A DNA stretch of 64,000 nucleotides from a virus. Every line of letters starts with the position of its first letter. Within the stretch, counting starts at the first letter, position 1. The stretch spans positions 17,073 to 81,072 of IMG/VR virus record IMGVR_UViG_3300035242_000035, one strand, 5' to 3'. The translations under genes were made by a program, and so were the position numbers. A model generated the notes under the pieces. The model saw only the letters and a list, made by a program, of their open reading frames with translations. It did not search any database and was not told the DNA's origin. Shown here piece after piece: positions 507 through 63,137 of the stretch.

Positions 507-2198
507 TCAGTCCCAGCGGTCCAGCTGGTAGAACATCTCGCCAAGCTCACCGGTGACGCGGAGCGTGCAGTCCCACCCTTCCCCGTCCCGCCTGAGCAGC
601 AGGCCGCAGGCGGTCGCCTCCTCCTTGCCAGCGATGGCCGCCTGCCGGCTGTAGGCCTCCAGCGTGGCGCGGACCTGGTGGAACTCGGACTTCAGCATCT
701 CCGGGAAGAGCCCGCCTCCGCGCCCGGCGGCGTAGTTCAGGTCCCGCGCCCCCTCGAGCAGCAGGAAGACCCTCTGGCCGTGATGGGCGTGGCGGTCTTC
801 GCCCGACCACATGTTGGGGCCCAGCGCGACCGCAGCGACGGCCACCCACCCGCCGGGCCGGAGGTTCCACCGAGACGCGTGGGAGCCACTGGCATACACG
901 TACCAGGAGAAGGGGTTGCGCTGCTCCGGGTTGTCCCACTGGAGGATCGGCGGTGCGCCGGAGTCGGCCGCGGTCAGGAGCGCGGCGTAGCTGCCAGCGA
1001 ATGGCGCGAGCAGTTCGATCTTCTTCGCGTCGGGCAACACGGTTCGGCGAAACTTCTCCCAGGTGATCGGCGTGGGCGGCTGCCTGACGCTGGTGGCCAC
1101 CGCTCCGCGCCCCTTCGCGGCCAGGTGGCCGAACACGCTGCCGGGATGGGGAGACTTGGGGGCATGGCCATGGCTCGGGCGCCAGAGCGCCTGGACCTCC
1201 TCGAGCTTCGCGAACCTGCGGCTGAGGGACGGCGCGATCCCCATCTCGGCGACGAGTTTCTCCGCAGCGGCGATGTTACCGGCGCTCGGGGCAGCCTGGG
1301 GGCGTTGGTAGAGCAGCGGGTTCATCTTGGAGTAGAAGCGCTCCTTGATCACCTCGAACGGGAGCCCGGCCTTCACGTCCTCCAACAGGGCGCCGATCAT
1401 CCCAGATCGGACGTGGCAGAAGCCGGTCGGGGCCTTCGCCACGGCCCGCCAGGTCAGGTTGGCCGCCCGGTCGCCGCCGTGCGCTGCACCTGGAACGCGC
1501 CCAGGGACGAACGTGAGCGTGGAACCTGGCACCAGCGCCCGCGCTTCGTGCAGGTCCAACAACCAACGGGCCATCCCCTCGCACTTCTCGCTCCTGTAGA
1601 GATTGCCGCTGACCAGGAGTTGAAGCGCGGCGCGCACGGTCTCGGCCGGGAACTCCGCAAGGCCGCGGCACAACATCCCGAACTCCTCGGACTTCTGGGC
1701 GGCCAGCTGGTCGGCGCGCTCGGCTGAGCCCACCAGGACAGATGTGACCGCGGACATGTGGCGCCAGGTTCCACGCTTACTCTCGTTCTGGGGCACACCC
1801 CAAGTGCGCTCACTGGTGAAGAAGACGCTGGAGATCGTCGCGCGCCGGACCATGCGCTGGAGCTCCTCCACCGCACGGTCTAGGCCGGCGCCGACGCCAG
1901 CCGGCGCCCAGAACAGCGGGACCAGGAGCCCGTCGTCGGCCACCGTGACCAGCCCGCCATAGCGCTCGACGAACCGGCGGCAGGCCCGGCAGTTGTAGTG
2001 CTGACGCTCCGGTTCGTCCAGGGCGCCCAGGAAAGCGTCAAACAGCCGTGGCGCCGCGTCGGTCTGGAACAGCGCGGCGCCGGCGCCCGTGGCTGCCAGC
2101 GCCCGCTCGCGAAGGGCTACCAGCAGCCGCCCGTACCCGTCCTCGTCGTGGTGGTGGGCCTTGACTCCTCCGGTCTCGCTCGAAATCGTCGTCTCCAC
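507..2198 (-). CDS. Large conserved-looking phage protein of unknown function (HYNCRAC motif)
   Basis: GTG at 2198 after AAAAGGAGAGG; long globular ORF with CxxC and aromatic blocks (ILQWD, RNPFSWYVY, LFPEMLKSEFH). Confidence 0.8.
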   Translation of the reverse strand: METTISSETGGVKAHHHDEDGYGRLLVALRERALAATGAGAALFQTDAAPRLFDAFLGALDEPERQHYNCRACRRFVERYGGLVTVADDGLLVPLFWAPAGVGAGLDRAVEELQRMVRRATISSVFFTSERTWGVPQNESKRGTWRHMSAVTSVLVGSAERADQLAAQKSEEFGMLCRGLAEFPAETVRAALQLLVSGNLYRSEKCEGMARWLLDLHEARALVPGSTLTFVPGRVPGAAHGGDRAANLTWRAVAKAPTGFCHVRSGMIGALLEDVKAGLPFEVIKERFYSKMNPLLYQRPQAAPSAGNIAAAEKLVAEMGIAPSLSRRFAKLEEVQALWRPSHGHAPKSPHPGSVFGHLAAKGRGAVATSVRQPPTPITWEKFRRTVLPDAKKIELLAPFAGSYAALLTAADSGAPPILQWDNPEQRNPFSWYVYASGSHASRWNLRPGGWVAVAAVALGPNMWSGEDRHAHHGQRVFLLLEGARDLNYAAGRGGGLFPEMLKSEFHQVRATLEAYSRQAAIAGKEEATACGLLLRRDGEGWDCTLRVTGELGEMFYQLDRWD

Positions 2199-5264: not shown

Positions 5265-5593
5265 GTCGCCCTCCTCCCCGGTGCTGGCTCCACGCCGCAC
5301 CCGGTGAGTCGGTCGACCTCCTCGGCGAGGATCCAGGCGTGGCAGGCGACCGCATCGGGCGGACACGCGCAGAGGAGCCGTTTGCCAGCCAGGCCGAAGA
5401 GGTGATCCGTGAACCACGGCCCCGTGCGCTCGATGCTGCGGCGTAGCCACTCTCGGTAGAGATCGAGGGCGCGCCAGCCGTACCGCTGCACGGTGTACGG
5501 GTTGCCCCAGGGGCCGGGCCGCGTGACGAGGACGTCCCGCTCTTCCGGTTCCCCTCGGCTGCGCAGACTGGCGACTTGGATTGGGGACATCAC
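5255..5593 (-). CDS. DUF4326 domain protein
   Basis: RPGPWGNPY...YREWL...LAGKRLLCACPP..CHAWIL. Confidence 0.85.
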   Translation of the reverse strand: MMSPIQVASLRSRGEPEERDVLVTRPGPWGNPYTVQRYGWRALDLYREWLRRSIERTGPWFTDHLFGLAGKRLLCACPPDAVACHAWILAEEVDRLTGCGVEPAPGRRATCR

Positions 5594-5808
5594 CGACCCT
5601 CGGTCTTGGCGATGGCGGCGCCTGCGACGGTGAGGAGCTGTCTCCGCGTGAGCGCCGGCCTGCCGACGTTCGGATCGAGCCCGAGCCCGCGGTGAATGGT
5701 CCGCAGCGCCTTCAACGCCTGGGGCGCCGCATCTGCTCGGCGCACGACCTCCGGCGTGGCCTCGGCGAGGAGGGCGCGGGCCTGCTCGCAGTTAACGTAA
5801 TGCCCCAC
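5590..5808 (-). CDS. Hypothetical protein
   Basis: Overlapping start/stop coupling within the operon. Confidence 0.5.
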   Translation of the reverse strand: MGHYVNCEQARALLAEATPEVVRRADAAPQALKALRTIHRGLGLDPNVGRPALTRRQLLTVAGAAIAKTEGR

Positions 5809-5935
5809 CGCGCTCGCCTCTTCGGAATACCTCCGCCAGTAACACGGAGCCGCGGCGCCGTGTGTGGCACAGTTCCTCGTGTACAGCGCTTGCCGCGAAC
5901 TCGCGCAACCGCTCGACGATGCCCTTGGTGCTCAT
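5792..5935 (-). CDS. Small hypothetical protein (MSTKGIVERL...)
   Basis: ATG with GGAGG RBS, ATGA overlap with upstream gene. Confidence 0.45.
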   Translation of the reverse strand: MSTKGIVERLREFAASAVHEELCHTRRRGSVLLAEVFRRGERGGALR

Positions 5936-6159
5936 GACCGCCTCCACCTGGAAATCTCCTCTGGCCACATGGTCAGAGCGTCTCTCCGCTCGAACCCCTC
6001 CACCCACACGACGTACATGCCGCTGTCGCGTAGGTACGAGACGATCACCCCCAACTTGCCGACGAGCGCTTGGGGGGTTCTCGACGCCGTCTCTGGCACC
6101 AACCGCAGCAAGTCGCCGTCGAAGCCGTCGCACCAGAACCGCTCGGGCGTGGCGTTCAT
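5932..6159 (-). CDS. Hypothetical protein
   Basis: ATGA coupling on both sides. Confidence 0.55.
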   Translation of the reverse strand: MNATPERFWCDGFDGDLLRLVPETASRTPQALVGKLGVIVSYLRDSGMYVVWVEGFERRDALTMWPEEISRWRRS

Positions 6160-7016
6160 CCCCCAACTCCGGCGCCGGTCCCTGTCGCGCCCTCGGCGAT
6201 CATTCGGTCTAGTAGGTCGAGCGCCGACCGCTGGAGGCGCTCGACGGTGCCCGCGAGGGCTTGCTCGGCCGCGCTCCAGGCCGCGCTCTCGGCCGCGCTC
6301 TCGGCCGCGCTCCTGGCCGCGCTCTCGGCCGCGCTCCAGGCCGCGCTCTCGGCCGCGCTCTCGGCCGCGCTCCTGGCCGCGCTCTCGGCCGCGCTCCAGG
6401 CCGCGCTCTCGGCCGCGCTCCTGGCCGCGCTCTCGGCCGCGCTCCAGGCCGCGCTCTCGGCCGCGCTCTCGGCCGCGCTCCAGGCCGCGCTCTCGGCCGC
6501 GCTCCTGGCCGCGCTCTCGGCCGCGCTCCAGGCCGCGCTCCAGGCCGCGCTCTCGGCCGCGCTCTCGGCCGCGCTCAACGGGCCCTGAGCGTCCCCCGTG
6601 GTGGCGATGTCCACGATCTGCGCCAGCGAGCGGAGCGCGGCGGCCTCATTGTACAGATTCGCCAGCTCGAGCCAGGTGGGCGCGAAGGTGCGGACGTACC
6701 AGTCGATCGCGAGGTACGCCCGCCGCTTCTCGACCTCCGCCGGCGCTGCCGTGCCGACGAGCCGGAGCACGTACGGCTTGAGCCACTGGCGTCGCTCGTC
6801 GTCCAGGCTGTCGTTCCAGTCGCGCAGGAAGGCGCCAATGGACTCGCTCGCGCACCGCGGATGGTCGCTGTGCGGCTCGCGAGCGACGAAGGCCACCGCT
6901 TCCATCACGCAGCACCCGTCCTCTGGCGAACGGTGGGATCCGTGCGCGAGAGTGAGCCGCGCAAGGAACGTCTCTATCTCGGCCCGCCGCTCGGGGCCGA
7001 CGTCTGGCGCGCTCAT
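6156..7016 (-). CDS. Phage protein with 26 SAA(E/W/R) tetrapeptide repeats
   Basis: N-terminal GSH...CCVMEA...HSDHPRC...WNDSL block, then repeat tract and short helical tail. Confidence 0.85.
   Translation of the reverse strand: MSAPDVGPERRAEIETFLARLTLAHGSHRSPEDGCCVMEAVAFVAREPHSDHPRCASESIGAFLRDWNDSLDDERRQWLKPYVLRLVGTAAPAEVEKRRAYLAIDWYVRTFAPTWLELANLYNEAAALRSLAQIVDIATTGDAQGPLSAAESAAESAAWSAAWSAAESAARSAAESAAWSAAESAAESAAWSAAESAARSAAESAAWSAAESAARSAAESAAESAAWSAAESAARSAAESAAESAAWSAAEQALAGTVERLQRSALDLLDRMIAEGATGTGAGVGG
6264..6575 (-). repeat. 26 x 12-bp tandem repeat AGCGCGGCC(GAG/TGG/AGG)
   Basis: Directly visible; 312 bp, only the fourth codon varies. Confidence 0.97.
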
Positions 7017-14964: not shown

Positions 14965-17151
14965 ATGAGTGATCACGTCTTCACCGCACTGTTCCCGTTC
15001 TGCGGCCTCGGAGCTGGCGCTCGCGGCTTCATCGAAGCGATGGCCCATCTCGGCACGGACTCGGCTCGGTTCCTCAACCTCGGCGGGATCGACGTCGACG
15101 CGGAGAGTTGCTCCGACTTCGAGAGGTTGGCCGGCGGCCCAGCGCTCCGGGCCGACCTGCACTCGCTCACGCCGGCCGAGCTCATCGCCTGGCTGGTGGC
15201 GCAGCACGGGAGGAAGATCGCGGAGAGAAGGCCCGACGCCGTATTTCTGTCTCCGCCATGCAAAGGCATGAGCAGATTGCTCGGGACGAAGGCGGCAAGG
15301 GCCGAGAAGTATCAGCGCCTCAACGGCCTCGTGTGCGAGGGGCTGTTCCTCGTCCTGGAGACGTGGCCGGACGCCAGGCCGCCGCTGATCGTGCTGGAGA
15401 ACGTGCCGGGCATCGTCCAGCGCGGGGCCGAACTACTCGACCGCGCGCGGCGGATGCTGTCCGGGTACGGGTACGTCTTCAACGCGGCCACCCACGACTG
15501 CGGCGAGATCGGCGGGCTCGCCCAGCACCGCAAGCGCTTCCTGTTGGTGGCGCGCGACCCGCGCCAGGTGCCGGCGTTCGTCTACCAACCGCCGAAGAAG
15601 CGGGTGCGCGGGTGTGGCGAGGTGCTCGGCGAGCTCGCGCTCCCCGGCGACCCGGAGGCCGGACCGCTCCACCGGCTCCCGCTGATCGATTGGGTGAATT
15701 GGGTGCGGCTGGCGCTGATCCCCCCGGGCGGAGACTGGCGGGACCTCCCCCGCACCGTCCAACTCGCTGCCGACAACCCTAACCGTCACGAGGCGAAGCT
15801 GCGGGTCGAGGACTTCTCCCAGCCCGCGCATGCGGTGACGGGCGCCACGCGGCCGAACTCCGGCGCGCCCTCTGTTGCGGACCCGAGGGTGCTGGGCTTG
15901 AACTTGAGCCCCAACGCCCACAACAACCTCTATGTCGTGGGCGCGTGGGAGGAACCAGCGAAGACGGTGATAGGCGCTACCCGCCCGGGCAGCGGCGCTG
16001 CCGCTGTCGCGGATCCCCACCTAGAGAAACTCCAGCCGGGGCTCACGGCCACCAATGCGGGGACCTGGAAGGGTCGGCCGGGCTTCATGGGCGTGCTCGA
16101 CTGGCGGGAGCCGTCTCGGACGGTGGTCGGTCGCTCCTCTGTCAGCGGGGGTCATGCCAGCGCGGCCGTCGCCGAGCCGTTCGGCCACGTGAACCTGGTG
16201 CTCGGATGGGACCAACCGTCTGGCACGGTCACCCACGCCCCAGCGCCCAGCTCGGGTGGCGGCGCCGTCGCTGACCCGCGTGTGCCCGGGCTGGAGATCT
16301 CCGACTCATCCCGTGGCGGCGCGCTGGGGGTGATTGGTTGGGCCGAACCGGCACCCACCATCACCGGGAGCATGGAGCCCGCGCGCAGCAACACGCCGGG
16401 CTCAGTGGCGGACCCACGCTTCCGCGGCAGCCTGGGCGTGACGGCCTGGCAGGCGCCTGCTCGAACCGTCACCGGCGAGAGCTACCCGAGCAATGGGGCC
16501 GCCTCGGTCGCTGACCCGCGTCTGGTCTCGCCTGTTCAGCCAGGCCAAGCCCGTCGCGAGGTGATCGGCCGGCACCGGGTGCTCGACTGGCGGCACCCGT
16601 CCCCGGTGGTCGCCGGCCCCGGCAGCAACGGCGCGCAGAACATCGCCGACGTGAGGGCCGAGGCGCTCGTGCTCGGCTGCTCCCCGCGAGCCGGCGTGTA
16701 CGGCGTGCTGTCCTGGGAGCAGGCCGCGGCCACGGTGATCGGCGAGGCCCGGGTGGACAACGGCCGGTACGCGGTCGCCGACCCTCGGCCCGGCGATCCC
16801 GGTTGGCGCCCGCCGGAGGGGGTAATCCCGGTCATCATCTCACCGTGGGGCTGCTGGCACCGGCCGCTGACGACGCTGGAGCTGGCGGCGCTGCAGGGGC
16901 TCCCGGCGACGCTCAACGGCAAGCCGCTGGAACTAGCTGGCCGGGCAGTGTCCAGGTGGCGCGAGCGCATCGGCAACGCCGTGCCGGTCCAGGCCGGGAC
17001 CGCGATCGCCGTGAGCCTGCTGAAGGCGCTGCTCGCCTCCGCGGTCGGCCACTGGTCCATCCTCTTCGGGCCGGGCGGCGCCGCGGTGTGGGTCCGGGAT
17101 GACGGGCGGGACGAGCACGAGGTGGGCCCTTCGGAGGGGGTGTCTCCATGA
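14965..17151 (+). CDS. C5-cytosine DNA methyltransferase with 8 internal repeats
   Basis: FCGLGAG (motif I), SPPCKG (IV), ENVPG (VI), QHRKR (VIII), RPLT..ELAALQG (IX), IGNAVP (X). Confidence 0.93.
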   Translation: MSDHVFTALFPFCGLGAGARGFIEAMAHLGTDSARFLNLGGIDVDAESCSDFERLAGGPALRADLHSLTPAELIAWLVAQHGRKIAERRPDAVFLSPPCKGMSRLLGTKAARAEKYQRLNGLVCEGLFLVLETWPDARPPLIVLENVPGIVQRGAELLDRARRMLSGYGYVFNAATHDCGEIGGLAQHRKRFLLVARDPRQVPAFVYQPPKKRVRGCGEVLGELALPGDPEAGPLHRLPLIDWVNWVRLALIPPGGDWRDLPRTVQLAADNPNRHEAKLRVEDFSQPAHAVTGATRPNSGAPSVADPRVLGLNLSPNAHNNLYVVGAWEEPAKTVIGATRPGSGAAAVADPHLEKLQPGLTATNAGTWKGRPGFMGVLDWREPSRTVVGRSSVSGGHASAAVAEPFGHVNLVLGWDQPSGTVTHAPAPSSGGGAVADPRVPGLEISDSSRGGALGVIGWAEPAPTITGSMEPARSNTPGSVADPRFRGSLGVTAWQAPARTVTGESYPSNGAASVADPRLVSPVQPGQARREVIGRHRVLDWRHPSPVVAGPGSNGAQNIADVRAEALVLGCSPRAGVYGVLSWEQAAATVIGEARVDNGRYAVADPRPGDPGWRPPEGVIPVIISPWGCWHRPLTTLELAALQGLPATLNGKPLELAGRAVSRWRERIGNAVPVQAGTAIAVSLLKALLASAVGHWSILFGPGGAAVWVRDDGRDEHEVGPSEGVSP

Positions 17152-58827: not shown

Positions 58828-59751
58828 ATGCCCCGCGACTCCTCAGGAGCCATGACCCTCCCCTCAGGGAACCCGGTCGCCACCCTCACGCCCATCGACT
58901 CCGCGGTCCACAACAACACCATGGAGGATTTCCGGGCCGAGATACAGATGAGCTTGGACCGCGACGGACGCGGAGGAATGTCGGGCTCGCTGAAGCTGTC
59001 GGACGGAACGAGCGTGGCTGACCCAGGGGCGCAGTTCAGGTTGGACGCGGACACCGGGTTTTGGAGAGCTGGGGCGAACGACATGCGCGCGGTGGCGGGC
59101 GGAGTGTCGCTCCAGTCGTGGACCCCGACGTCGGTGGGCTTCGGGGTCAACGTGGCGGTGACCGGCAACATCACGGCGACGGGGAACGTCACGGCGACCG
59201 GCAACGTGGCTGCCGGCGGGAACCTGACGGCGACGGGGAACGGAGCGATCAACGGCAGCGCGTCCGTTGGTGGCGCACTGGATGTCTCCGGGACGGCATC
59301 CGCGGCGGTGCCGACGCTGGCCGGCCACCTCACGCGGAAGGACTACGTGGACGCCCTCGTTAAGGTGACCCCGCTTTTCTTTGGCATGGCTTACGTGACC
59401 CAGGCGTTCCCCAATGCGCTAACCGTTCCACCAGGGTGGGGTACTGCGCCGCTCGTCGCATCGAACGACAGCGCGCCGGCCATCATCATCACCGAGGCCT
59501 GCACGATCTCGAAGATGTACATCTCCGCGACGGCGAATACCTATGCAGCCGGGTTGACATTCACGGTGTACAAAAACGGCGTGGCCACGGCGTTGACGGC
59601 AACGCTGGCGGCAGGAGCCACCAGCGCGTCCGATACCACGCACTCGTTCACCGCTGTCGCGGGAGACAGGATCATGGTGCGCGTCGATGGGGCGGCCGCC
59701 GGCGCCACGCTCGCCGACACGAGCGTCTCTATGAAGTGCTCCTTCGGCTAA
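58828..59751 (+). CDS. Tail fibre/receptor-binding protein
   Basis: MPRDSSG..TLP.GNPV...NN...D...S..RDG anchor, VTGNITATGN repeats, TRKDYVD, lower-GC beta-sandwich tip. Confidence 0.82.
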   Translation: MPRDSSGAMTLPSGNPVATLTPIDSAVHNNTMEDFRAEIQMSLDRDGRGGMSGSLKLSDGTSVADPGAQFRLDADTGFWRAGANDMRAVAGGVSLQSWTPTSVGFGVNVAVTGNITATGNVTATGNVAAGGNLTATGNGAINGSASVGGALDVSGTASAAVPTLAGHLTRKDYVDALVKVTPLFFGMAYVTQAFPNALTVPPGWGTAPLVASNDSAPAIIITEACTISKMYISATANTYAAGLTFTVYKNGVATALTATLAAGATSASDTTHSFTAVAGDRIMVRVDGAAAGATLADTSVSMKCSFG

Positions 59752-59768
59752 CGCTCGGAATGGTCGGG

Positions 59769-60254
59769 TCAGGGGTGAGAAGCACGCCAAGCCGCGTCCG
59801 CTAGCGCGAAGCCAGGAACATCCGCCCAACTTCGATGCTGACGTGAGCCGTTTTCTGTCACCCCCAACGCGCGCGCCTCAAAGAAATGGAGGGCTTCGTG
59901 AGCCAGCGAATGAAGCGAAGAGTCGGTGAGCACCCATCCGTTGTAGGGGTCGAAGGACCCGGTCATTTCAACGGCACTCTCGTACGGCGGGATCGAGAAC
60001 GATGCCGAGTGGACCCAAATGATGGCGTCTCCCCATGCTTCCGAGGACATCAGGGCCACGTGGGCCCGCTCCATCGTCTGAACCAGATCGAGCGCGGCTG
60101 ACTCTGTGTCTTCACAGGTGAAATCGACGCTGGCCTGCAATCGGATCTGGAAGACGAACACCGAAGGGCAGATACGGGCGGCCTCGAACGGCACCGGCGT
60201 TTGGTTGCAGGCAAACAAAACCGCCGCCAGCACTACTGGTGCGATGCATTTCAT
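59769..60254 (-). CDS. Lipoprotein with HExxH zincin motif
   Basis: Lipobox VLFAC; SLAHEALH. Confidence 0.72.
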   Translation of the reverse strand: MKCIAPVVLAAVLFACNQTPVPFEAARICPSVFVFQIRLQASVDFTCEDTESAALDLVQTMERAHVALMSSEAWGDAIIWVHSASFSIPPYESAVEMTGSFDPYNGWVLTDSSLHSLAHEALHFFEARALGVTENGSRQHRSWADVPGFALADAAWRASHP

Positions 60255-60280
60255 GACAGACTCCGTTGTGAATGGTGGTG

Positions 60281-60315
60281 ATGAGCCCGGCCTGTTGCGA
60301 GCAGGCCGGGCTCAT
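60281..60315. terminator. 14-bp perfect hairpin ATGAGCCCGGCCTG-N7-CAGGCCGGGCTCAT
   Basis: Inverted repeat seen directly; no U tract, so function is uncertain. Confidence 0.45.
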
Positions 60316-60465
60316 ATGGTGGATGGGGTTGGAGTCGATTGGGCGGCCGGGACGAAGGCCGTGGGATCCGTGCAGATCACGGCATATACCGGCGCCGGGC
60401 TCTACAACATGGGCGCTGGCAATGCGGCTCGTGTTGGGGTGGCGATCTTCGGTCCGGGCGCCTAA
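60316..60465 (+). pseudogene. Possible orphan tail-fibre C-terminal fragment
   Basis: ..GSVQITAYTGAGLYNMGAGNAARVGVAIFGPGA*, beta-rich, no RBS. Confidence 0.4.
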
Positions 60466-61064
60466 GGCACTCTAACCACGCACGCAATGCCGGCATCGAC
60501 GGCCGTGCATGCGTTGATCTGGGACACGCCCCTGAAAGGACAGCACCAGTTCCCCTGGAAACAGGGCCCTCCCTCATTGGCCACCTGCCCTACGGATCCG
60601 CCATCGGGTAACCGAATCGGCGAGCTCCAGCAGGTGCCTGGGTTAGGTTGGCAACGAAGTTCGCCGCCGCGCCCAGAGAGACAGGCCAGGCCCGGGCAGC
60701 ACCAGAGGTTATCGAGACACGTCGAGCCCACAGCCCCGGGGCCGGCGCCGCCAGGGGCGCAAGAGGGGGCGGTGGCGCAGATCGGGGAAGTGGCTCGCCC
60801 AAGTCCATCCATGCAAGTCCGATTGCCGGCACAGTGCGCCCCACCACAGCACGGCCCGAACTCGTACCCGCACGACAAACACAGCCCCGTCGCTGAATCC
60901 AGAACAAGGCCGGCGTGGCACGACCCGTCTGCGCAGGGGCTATCATAGTCACCGCCGCACTTGTCGCGCTCGCGCTCGCAGGCCAGGCTGATGCTCGCAA
61001 AGACAATCACCGACACGACGCGCGCCCATTTCTGCGCCATAGGCGTGGCTCCCGACTTCAGCAT
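60462..61064 (-). CDS. Cys-rich lipoprotein
   Basis: RBS GAAAGGGAAGG; lipobox ISLAC; more than 20 Cys with CC and G.PC repeats. Confidence 0.75.
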   Translation of the reverse strand: MLKSGATPMAQKWARVVSVIVFASISLACERERDKCGGDYDSPCADGSCHAGLVLDSATGLCLSCGYEFGPCCGGAHCAGNRTCMDGLGRATSPICATAPSCAPGGAGPGAVGSTCLDNLWCCPGLACLSGRGGELRCQPNPGTCWSSPIRLPDGGSVGQVANEGGPCFQGNWCCPFRGVSQINACTAVDAGIACVVRVP

Positions 61065-61115
61065 GGATTTGTTCCTTCCCTTTCGCCACCGGCAATCCCG
61101 GGGGACGAGCGGAAG

Positions 61116-61175
61116 AATGCGCCAGATTTCCGGATAGCGCAAGAGGGGCAGAGTAAATGCCTCCAGATTTCCGGA
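61116..61175. promoter_or_regulatory. Direct repeat CCAGATTTCCGGA x2 in divergent intergenic region
   Basis: 61122-61134 and 61163-61175, each preceded by AATGC. Confidence 0.6.
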
Positions 61176-61237
61176 CTTCCGGGGTGAAATTAGACCCATT
61201 TCCACCAGCGGAGAAATCGGGCAGTCTTCATGCCACC

Positions 61238-61870
61238 ATGAGCGAACCCAGCGAGCCCAACATTTGCCGCGTCCCTGGCTGCGGCCGTCCCGTCCACGCG
61301 ACGGGGCTCTGCCGCACCCATTACGACAAGGGCGAGAAGTACAGGATCCGCGGCTACACCCCTCGGGGCTCAGAACGCGAGTTCTACGCCGGGATCAAAG
61401 TAGAGCCGGCCACCCTCCAGGCGCTTGAGGGCGCGGAGAAGCTGACCAGCCTGTCGCCATCCGTGGTGCTCGGACAAGTGGCGGACGGCTGGGCGCGGAA
61501 GGAAGTGTGGAACCCCCGGAAACACGTCCGGGCTGGCGCGGCGGTCGTGGCGTCACTCGCGCTGGCGGGGATGATGGGGTTCCACTGCGCACCGCACGCG
61601 GTGAGGCCCAGCGGGCCCGCGGCCGAGGTGGTGTCGAAGGCAATGCCGCCGGGGCCGCTGGAGGGGCAGGCCCGCCCGCCGTGCGAGGAGCCCACGGTCG
61701 AGAAAGTCGGTGGTTGCTGGGGCGCGGTGCGCTACCCGGATGGCAGACAGAAGCGCGGCTGTTTGGAGTCGAAGCTGATGTACGAGGACAAGGACGGCCT
61801 ATGCTGGCTTCCTGCCTGGGAGAAGCCGCCGCCGCGTATCCCCACGAGCATCGAGATGCACCCGCAGTAG
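61238..61870 (+). CDS. Membrane-anchored ZnF/RHH-like protein with myxobacterial kinase-type extracellular Cys domain
   Basis: CRVPGC..GLCRTHY; strand-helix-helix; TM AAVVASLALAGMMGF; MPPGPLEGQARPPC..GGCW..C..YE..G.C.LP..PR.PTS. Confidence 0.72.
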   Translation: MSEPSEPNICRVPGCGRPVHATGLCRTHYDKGEKYRIRGYTPRGSEREFYAGIKVEPATLQALEGAEKLTSLSPSVVLGQVADGWARKEVWNPRKHVRAGAAVVASLALAGMMGFHCAPHAVRPSGPAAEVVSKAMPPGPLEGQARPPCEEPTVEKVGGCWGAVRYPDGRQKRGCLESKLMYEDKDGLCWLPAWEKPPPRIPTSIEMHPQ

Positions 61871-61903
61871 CGTCAACCCGTCCCACCGAAAGAAGAGGTC
61901 CCC

Positions 61904-62233
61904 ATGAATAGGCTCCCGTTCCTCCTCGTCATCTTGGGTTGCGGCTCCCTCACGCAGCTCGCCGTCAAGGAGGTCGACTCCAAGCGGGTCGAGGTGACGA
62001 ACCTCCAGTCCGGACCAGTGGTCTGCGGCCTCGCGCCAGAAGGCACATCCTGCGGATCACCGGGCGTTCTGCCTGGGGACATGGCCGAGAGGAAGTGCGT
62101 GCTCCCGGGGGAAGTGGTCATCCTTCCGCGCCTGCCAGGACGGATGCTGTGCTGCTCCGGCGTGCTGCGCTGTCCCGGACAAGACGGCCTCGGCCGTGGC
62201 CCCTCGGGCATGGGCTCGGCGGAGTCCTGGTAA
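61904..62233 (+). CDS. Cys-containing lipoprotein
   Basis: MNRLPFLLVILGC lipobox; AGAGG RBS. Confidence 0.65.
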   Translation: MNRLPFLLVILGCGSLTQLAVKEVDSKRVEVTNLQSGPVVCGLAPEGTSCGSPGVLPGDMAERKCVLPGEVVILPRLPGRMLCCSGVLRCPGQDGLGRGPSGMGSAESW

Positions 62234-62282
62234 CGCCGTGGGGTTCCACGCGGTTGGAGGAGTGGTCGAAAGGAGAGGACCG

Positions 62283-63137
62283 ATGCAACGATTGACGGCG
62301 CGCGAGCGCTTCATGAGGAAGGTCGTGGTCGAGGTGGGCGAGCACTGGCGCTGGCTCGGGAAGGCCAAGAACGGCCGCGGGTGGTTTCGGTTCGCGAGCG
62401 GCGAGAGGCAGGTGCGCGAGGCGGACCGCGCAGCCTGAACGCTGTTCCGCGGGGACGTGCTGCCCGGCCACGTCGTCCGCTATTGCTCGGGCTGCGTCAA
62501 CCCGTGGCACGCTCGGCTCCAGCGGGCCGAGGAGTTCACTCAGGAGATTCGCCTCCCAGCCCCTCTGCGTGGCGAGGCCACCCCTCAGGCCAAACTCGAC
62601 GCGAAGACCGTCAGGCGCGTCGTTCGTCTATGGAACAGCGGGTGGACCGGGAGGCAAATCCGCGGGCGCATCGGGCCACGAGTGACCGTCCATGCCATCC
62701 AGGCGATCACCACCGGCCGGACTTGGCAGTGTCTCGACCTGGCGATCACCAGACAGCCACGGCGTGGGCGCTGGCGCACCGGCCACCAGGTGCTGACCGA
62801 CGTCGAGGTGATGATCGCGCGGCACCTCCACGCCTGCGGTTACGGCGTCCGCGAGTCCTGGCGCCGCTGCGGCACCAGGGCCGGCGAGGGTGCGACCACC
62901 CAGGCAATCAGCGGACGCACGTTCCGCCACCTGCCGCTGCCCGTGTACCCGAGGGAGGCGCTCGCGCTGCCTGGTAGCGCGGCCCTCGTCCGTGTGCGCC
63001 GTGCCGCTGACGTGTTCGTGGACCCCGAGGAGTACGCCCGCGCGCAGTTGCTCGACATCAGCGGCATCCCGGGCTCGGTGATCGACGACGTGGCCGGGAG
63101 CATGATCGAGCAGGAGCGCGAGAGGCGTGGTCGGTGA
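62283..63137 (+). pseudogene. Degenerate HNH with two HTH repeats, in-frame TGA at 62436-62438
   Basis: ERFMRKV..WRWLG..G.F..ADRAA*TLFRG..CVNPWH in one frame; RGE..PQAKL. Confidence 0.72.

Follow-up and report, generated by a model that had tools for sequence, protein, structure and literature searches.

The question raised by this locus is why a virus should encode a protein that begins like a DNA-binding protein and ends like a bacterial protein kinase. The locus lies in IMG/VR record IMGVR_UViG_3300035242_000035, which is 81,072 bp long. Its right-hand 64 kb (positions 17,073 to 81,072) were analysed and are called the window; coordinates refer to the window unless a contig is named. The protein in question is encoded at 61238-61870 and consists of a zinc finger, a ribbon-helix-helix (RHH) segment, one transmembrane (TM) helix and a four-cysteine tail. 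To judge by its sequence, this tail is a diverged copy of the domain that ends a lineage-expanded family of Hanks-type Ser/Thr kinases in Myxococcaceae. We propose, with moderate confidence, that the protein is a membrane-tethered RHH one-component autoregulator, similar in its logic to ToxR and CadC, which would act on paired repeats in front of its own gene.

The gene and its product

The gene and the parts of its product are as follows.

61238-61870, plus strand: gene of the chimeric membrane protein, 210 residues (third-position GC content, AlphaFold2, homologues)
61259-61330, plus strand: Cys3His zinc finger, residues 8-31, with C10, C15, C25 and H28 (PHROG match)
61373-61504, plus strand: RHH domain, residues 46-89, with a strand at 48-55 and helices at 57-70 and 74-86 (superposition, profile)
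61514-61579, plus strand: single TM helix, residues 93-114, with Lys and Arg on its N-terminal side, RKEVWNPRKHVR (hydropathy, model)
61586-61588, plus strand: Cys117, a fifth, unpaired cysteine predicted to lie just outside the membrane (alignment column)
61637-61849, plus strand: predicted extracytoplasmic four-cysteine domain, residues 134-204, homologous to the tails of Myxococcaceae Ser/Thr kinases (search, alignment)

The gene is real. The GC content of its third codon positions (GC3) is 0.86, which is of coding type, compared with 0.48 in a possible 27-codon 5' extension from 61157, and the start codon is therefore placed at 61238. The homologues likewise start just ahead of the finger. 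The AlphaFold2 model of the full-length protein, calculated from 18 aligned sequences, has a mean predicted local distance difference test score (pLDDT) of 82. It contains the finger (residues 8-31, pLDDT 88-90), the strand and two helices of the RHH segment, and a long helix (residues 93-114). Residues 116-132 are disordered in the model, and residues 134-200 form a compact beta-rich domain with a block pLDDT of 79-97, mostly about 96.

An earlier note, made from the letters of the DNA alone, had described the finger spacing C10-x4-C15-x9-C25-x2-H28 and the C-terminal motif MP..P..GQ.RPPC..GGCW..C..YE..G.C.LP..PR.PTS, and both are present in the translation exactly so. Its division of the protein into finger, RHH segment, TM helix and four-cysteine C-terminus is borne out by a PHROG match, the AlphaFold2 model, the superposition of the RHH segment onto known structures and a profile match to CopG. 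No winged-helix domain (Trans_reg_C or other) and no Pkinase domain matches the 210-residue protein; the former was sought in Pfam and NCBIfam.

The kinase-type tail

The cysteines of the tail are Cys149, 160, 175 and 189. A search with one genome per species found a single close relative of this domain, situated in a Myxococcaceae metagenome-assembled genome (L001, 6684-8195). There it ends a protein of 503 residues, which also contains a Pkinase domain recognised by Pfam (E 1.6e-27), a TM segment and the motif seen in the phage protein. The best host tail belongs to a 466-residue frame with an HRD motif (L012) and is 51% identical to that of the phage protein (E 2e-18). A profile of five sequences gave 82 matches in a single genome of 10.8 Mb (G001), mostly in frames of 450-520 residues, and the HRD motif was seen in seven of the eight tail frames of this genome that were viewed whole. 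The similarity to a large family of myxobacterial Ser/Thr kinases, which the earlier note had stated, is thus confirmed.

Of 201 Myxococcota genomes sampled, 29 have the tail according to a profile of 20 sequences, which finds kinases at E values down to 1e-28. Seven of these 29 hold at least about 30 copies among the matches listed, and the rest hold one to four, showing that the family has expanded strongly in one lineage. In a search with a single protein, tails were found in 62 of 151 sampled Myxococcaceae genomes, a tally that takes in one weak match from an unpublished genome (G050) on which no other claim rests.

The phage tail and the tails of the Hanks-type kinases have the motif P..P..GQ.RPPC..GGCW..C..Y...G.C[YW].P...P.[TS]S in common, in both cases C-terminal to a TM helix. 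Upon alignment of phage-type and kinase tails, G, Q, W and the four cysteines are invariant. However, the phage tail has about five extra residues between its second and third cysteines, and its signature is YED..G.CW where the kinases have YEW.G.CY. The phage protein follows the kinases in its order of cytoplasmic module, TM helix and tail, in agreement with the earlier suggestion that a DNA-binding head takes the position of the kinase domain.

No Pfam or NCBIfam model matches the tail, and a literature search for the kinase tail found no description of it. The tail modelled alone has a pLDDT of 86 and a predicted TM-score of 0.69. With this model, a fold search of the PDB gave only Foldseek E values above 1 and no chain at Z of 2 or more among 48,161, which does not establish a new fold. 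The tail of about 65 residues and four cysteines, carried by genomes such as G001, G031, G063, G081 and G094, represents a separate, uncharacterised domain family.

The zinc finger and the ribbon-helix-helix domain

In PHROG, the finger matches the one at the N-terminus of HNH-endonuclease families (phrog_5351, E 1.5e-4; phrog_19978, E 8e-4), with which it has the C-x4-C-x9-C-x2-H spacing and surrounding residues in common. In the endonucleases a nuclease domain follows the finger, whereas the phage protein has none and a separate HNH gene is situated about 400 bp downstream. The match to the PHROG finger region is confined to residues 5-52, the HNH catalytic motif is not present, and there is no Pfam HNH match. 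An exhaustive phmmer search gave 672 matches, mostly to proteins with tandem copies of the same finger.

The segment that follows has the beta-alpha-alpha topology of an RHH domain in the model (block pLDDT 76-93, mostly about 90). Residues 51-89 superpose onto a dozen RHH structures, including TraM, Rv0298, PutA, NikR, CdbA of Myxococcus, MazE9, SvtR and AmrZ, to within 1.4-2.1 Å over 36-39 residues (Z 3.2-3.8), and Foldseek gives a TMt of 0.73 against CopG. When the family profile is compared with the sequences of the PDB, CopG ranks top and is matched over the whole domain, at E 0.29. A G-x-S/T/N turn ahead of the second helix is classical for RHH domains. This turn is SLS in the phage protein and GLS in its homologues, aligned to the GLS of CopG. 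Among curated RHH models, no Pfam model matches the phage protein, and its relatives give weak matches to FitA-like RHH (E 0.053) and Arc (E 0.066).

The protein resembles the CopG, Arc and MetJ repressors and the RHH antitoxins in its fold of about 40 residues, in its G/S-L-S turn and in the paired repeats of its own promoter. It differs from them by the preceding zinc finger and by the membrane anchor. A literature search for membrane-anchored RHH proteins found none described.

The finger and RHH domain also stand alone, in small soluble proteins from metagenomes (P0067, P0126 and P0140). Since this unit and the tail each exist apart, the phage protein joins two pre-existing modules by way of a TM helix. 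A small protein of finger and RHH domain, in a frame of about 99-101 codons, is also strongly conserved in several Myxococcaceae genomes of 4-6 Mb (L014-L017, L021). In L017 the gene (1492-1773, minus strand; 93 residues from the ATG) is situated between an O-methyltransferase-like gene and the gene of a secreted protein.

Homologues with the same architecture

Searches covered 1.84 billion representatives of clusters, which stand for about 15 billion proteins. Four homologues hold the same domain order at 32-49% identity. Of these, three come from metagenomes: P0003 (248 residues, 45% identical) has finger, RHH domain, TM helix and tail; P0028 (200 residues) has the same four parts with a divergent tail; and P0151 (163 residues) has RHH domain, TM helix and tail without the finger. 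Two further relatives, P0007 and P0059, consist of TM helix and tail only. The chimera is not accidental, and its architecture is rare but recurrent. The rarity that the earlier note had surmised is evident from this handful of proteins and from the 50,697 phage records in which no relative was found, either as DNA or as protein. Three queries of IMG/VR also found none. A word-index search returned only the cluster of the regulator itself and, in its "longer" setting, still no kinases, which were revealed by the exhaustive phmmer search and the genome searches.

In the tree of tails, a single clade (support 98/95), distinct from the kinases, contains the five kinase-less tails, those of P0001, P0003, P0004, P0007 and P0059. 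The members of this clade have a five-residue insertion and a YED..CW signature in common.

Membrane topology

The most hydrophobic 19-residue stretch of the protein is at residues 97-115 (Kyte-Doolittle 1.64) and coincides with the modelled helix, and a hydrophobic segment occupies the equivalent position in all homologues. The head is predicted to lie in the cytoplasm and the tail in the periplasm, because the order of parts is that of the kinases, positive charges precede the helix and the four cysteines of the tail are conserved. A cysteine just after the TM helix, Cys117 in the phage protein, is common to all four RHH-TM-tail proteins (P0001, P0003, P0028 and P0004/P0151) and may contribute to dimerisation. 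The L001 kinase has no cysteine between its TM segment and its tail.

Paired repeats in the promoter region

The region ahead of the gene contains the following elements.

61122-61134, plus strand: first copy of a direct repeat, CCAGATTTCCGGA, a candidate operator, 116 bp before the ATG
61163-61183, plus strand: second copy (61163-61175), 75 bp before the ATG, and an overlapping degenerate copy (61171-61183)

The 13-bp repeat that the earlier note had seen here is exact at 61122 and 61163, with a spacing of 41 bp, and the third copy, at 61171, is 77% identical. Further exact copies are absent from the window, and the three TTCCGG motifs at the repeats are the sole such cluster in its 64 kb. 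A search from 59.5 to 62.5 kb that allowed spacers of up to 25 bases did not find the operators of the form TCGGA-n-TCCGA proposed in the same note. A sigma-54-like TGGCGC..GC beside the first repeat was ruled out by its wrong spacing (GG-N11-GC).

A second locus was available for comparison. L024, a soil metagenome contig of 4.4 kb, holds a homologue of the regulator that lacks the finger and starts at a TTG codon six bases past GGAGG. The other genes of this contig are unrelated to those of the phage and match no PHROG family, so that L024 is only possibly viral. The best direct repeat in its intergenic region, at any spacing of 15-99 bp, consists of CAATTCCCAATTGC and CAATGGACAATTGC, which are exactly 41 bp apart. 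Their distances from the start codon are 111 and 70 bp, compared with 116 and 75 bp in the phage. A match of 11 out of 14 positions at a spacing of 41 occurred in only 0.18% of shuffles of this intergenic region.

Each repeat contains a 6-bp palindrome, TCCGGA in the phage and CAATTG in L024, and the residues of the RHH strand differ as well. Such paired differences would be the pattern of operators and repressors that co-evolve. The recurrence of the 41-bp spacing is the strongest indirect evidence that the head may bind the repeats.

A model of action

The protein would be a single-pass protein of the inner membrane, with finger and RHH domain in the cytoplasm and a small disulfide-type domain in the periplasm. 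The tail, helped by the unpaired Cys117, would bring two chains together. RHH dimers could then occupy the two TCCGGA-containing 13-bp repeats, which, being 41 bp or about four helical turns apart, would present themselves on the same face of the helix. From this divergent promoter the protein might control its own gene, the downstream lipoprotein-like gene and the divergent cysteine-rich one. Since an RHH domain must dimerise in order to bind DNA, and dimerisation also activates Hanks kinases, a tail that pairs chains could serve either output. The DNA binding, the dimerisation through the tail, the operator and the choice of regulated genes are all putative.

In ToxR, CadC and TcpP, an N-terminal cytoplasmic DNA-binding domain is followed by one TM helix and a C-terminal periplasmic domain, in which cysteines could control dimerisation. 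The order of parts in the phage protein appears to be the same, and by this analogy a ToxR/CadC-like mode of action is plausible. However, those regulators have an OmpR-type winged helix where the phage protein has a zinc finger and an RHH domain, and the phage protein is hence not a member of the ToxR family. In addition, its predicted periplasmic domain is an unrelated one that belongs to the kinase-tail family, its tether has only about seven residues, and it is encoded by a phage.

Several observations weigh against such an autoregulator. The tether of about seven residues between RHH domain and TM helix in the model would force the DNA to lie against the membrane, more tightly than for ToxR or CadC. 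All RHH matches score low in absolute terms (Z below 4, profile E 0.29), although low scores are to be expected from a domain of only about 40 residues. The region shows no detectable sigma-70-like promoter, and just one other locus was examined for recurrence of the repeats. The existence of P0007 and P0059 shows that the tail is of some use without the head. Finally, conservation of the tail is high across dozens of paralogous kinases, which fits a common partner or dimerisation better than a specific ligand sensor.

A more elaborate version of the autoregulator is possible but doubtful. The phage may have captured the sensor tail of the most expanded kinase family of its host and fused it to a DNA-binding head. 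The protein would then read the periplasmic cue to which dozens of host kinases respond, or join their common partner, and convert the cue directly into transcription of genes for envelope lipoproteins, a form of eavesdropping by a one-component system of novel construction.

Other explanations

The alternative that survives best, though we consider it unlikely, is that the kinase-less tail acts as a decoy. It would pair with the tails of host kinases in a dominant-negative manner, or soak up their ligand or partner, and so blunt a host response, while the head would do no more than anchor the protein or make it oligomerise. The closeness of the phage tail to the host tails, at 51% identity, agrees with this, as do the conservation of the tail over many paralogues, which is as expected for a shared partner, and the existence of relatives made of TM helix and tail only. 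The grouping of the five kinase-less tails in one clade could be read in the same way. Yet this clade has its own loop insertion and signature, which indicates that its tails have evolved away from those of the host and have not kept pace with them. Furthermore, a decoy would need neither finger nor RHH domain, and the RHH domain is nevertheless retained in four independent homologues; the paired repeats, which recur together with the gene, point to DNA binding.

Less probable still is that the protein is stored in the membrane until a periplasmic cue causes it to be cut in the linker 116-132 and then within the membrane, freeing the head as a soluble repressor or activator. The predicted disorder of this 17-residue periplasmic linker would suit a cleavage site, the very short tether makes binding of DNA at the membrane awkward, and soluble proteins of finger and RHH domain exist in the same family. 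However, such release is deduced from the architecture alone, no protease gene is situated nearby and no cleavage motif was recognised. The conserved juxtamembrane cysteine agrees better with a stable dimer than with a protein destined to be cleaved.

A similarly small probability is assigned to functions other than regulation. The protein might tether phage DNA to the membrane by way of the repeats, in the service of replication, partition or packaging; alternatively, it might be part of a superinfection-exclusion cassette formed with the lipoproteins after the tail-fibre gene. The short tether would indeed pin bound DNA to the membrane. The gene is situated behind the tail-fibre gene in an island of lower GC content, amid frames with lipobox-like starts, and the L024 homologue likewise adjoins lipoprotein-like genes. 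Against these functions, the repeats are present only in the promoter of the gene itself, a distribution usual for autoregulation but not for a partition site, and no homology of the regulator to known exclusion proteins was found in Pfam, PHROG or NCBIfam.

That the gene is a chance chimera or a miscalled frame without function is hardly credible, since, although it has no close relatives in the phage databases and the word-index search gave only its own cluster, its GC3 is of coding type, all its parts fold confidently in the models, four homologues keep its domain order and short contigs 99-100% like the locus occur in three other rhizosphere runs.

The flanking lipoprotein-like genes

Two frames with lipobox-like starts flank the regulator.

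61904-62233, plus strand: downstream lipobox frame, 109 residues with 7 cysteines, LVILGC after a hydrophobic stretch, GC3 0.82
60462-61064, minus strand: divergent cysteine-rich lipobox frame, 200 residues, ISLAC after a hydrophobic stretch, GC3 0.74

The downstream frame begins 33 bp past the stop codon of the regulator, with which it is probably co-transcribed. The divergent frame has a Shine-Dalgarno sequence, AAGGGAAGGAA, ahead of the ATG at 61064, and 23 cysteines counted from a start at 61040. The earlier note had called both frames lipoprotein genes. They do have hydrophobic starts followed by lipobox-like ..LGC and ..LAC, but the assignment is one of pattern only, and ISLAC, in the divergent frame, is not a canonical lipobox.

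No homologue of the downstream frame was found in 5.8 billion clusters or in 151 Myxococcaceae genomes, and the protein Atlas gave only sub-threshold leads; the divergent frame has no match in the same 151 genomes. The earlier idea of a tie between the regulator and lipoproteins, or exchange by TraAB, finds no support here, as neither flanking frame has detected homologues and the only link is adjacency, in the phage and in L024. In L024 the regulator homologue diverges from two genes whose products have lipoprotein-like starts, one of them with a canonical ..FATGC. Lipoprotein genes beside tail-fibre genes are common in phages as exclusion genes that mask the receptor, and by analogy such exclusion would be an ordinary alternative explanation for their presence.

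The neighbours of host kinases were examined for a lipoprotein partner of the tail, by comparing 20 kinase loci of genome G094 with 20 control loci using a crude lipobox regular expression. A lipobox neighbour was present at 5 of the 13 called kinases, compared with about 5% of genes in the controls. However, these five comprise an amylase, a C39-like peptidase, an unannotated protein, a protein with no more than a weak match to an Ig-like domain, and a radical-SAM protein that the expression had picked up falsely. Further neighbours of host kinases include a P-type ATPase and dehydrogenases. As the neighbours are without a common partner, the excess was discounted, and a lipoprotein partner of the tail in the host is not supported by so heterogeneous a set. 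The L001 kinase diverges from a 75-residue lipobox frame (..VLPGC) and a 302-residue cysteine-rich protein (5488-6624, minus strand), an arrangement that resembles that of the phage; it did not generalise to the 20 kinase loci of G094.

The phage and its genomic setting

The record comes from a rhizosphere metagenome assembly. IMG/VR classes it as having direct terminal repeats, and its CheckV completeness is 100%. The GC content is about 69%. The large terminase is nearest to that of Myxococcus phage Mx9 (56.8% identity), and this genome, rated complete, yielded no recombinase of the tyrosine or serine type, no integrase and no resolvase. The virus is therefore an uncultivated phage, probably of myxobacteria, without sign of integration, and a role of the regulator in a decision between lysis and lysogeny is unsupported.

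The regulator locus comes directly after the tail-fibre gene. The stretch 59400-62200 is an island of lower GC content, 0.65 compared with about 0.69-0.73 elsewhere, and two minus-strand lipobox genes within it have a GC3 of just 0.70-0.74, compared with 0.82-0.95 elsewhere. These values suggest that the island is an accessory cassette gained more recently behind the tail-fibre gene.

The source sequencing run contains the entire stretch. The short contigs from the three other rhizosphere runs correspond to 60738-61014, 61427-61577 and 61998-62238 and cover parts of the upstream lipoprotein-like gene, the regulator gene and the downstream lipoprotein-like gene. Such near-identical contigs indicate that the phage or its close kin recur at low abundance. 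Among the sequencing runs listed, none with RNA data carries the stretch.

The HNH-endonuclease-like gene downstream of the regulator occupies 62283-63137, and its first 51 residues match PHROG 826 (E 1.1e-7). It has one in-frame stop, at 62436-62438, followed by 226 more codons in the same frame. The stop could reflect a pseudogene, a sequencing error or read-through.

Significance

Quite apart from the phage, a domain of 65 residues and four cysteines, without a Pfam or NCBIfam model or a relative in the PDB, ends dozens of Ser/Thr kinases in some Myxococcaceae. The phage protein pairs this tail with a readily assayed output, putative DNA binding at defined repeats, and could make it possible to determine whether the tail serves ligand sensing, dimerisation or partner binding. 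To our knowledge, only a few phages are known to respond to host signals, and all of these do so through soluble receptors. If the proposed reading is correct, a membrane-tethered regulator built from the sensor tail of a host kinase would be a different route by which a phage senses its host. The eavesdropping version would also provide the first experimental handle on an uncharacterised domain, of which one myxobacterial genome can contain as many as about 80 copies.

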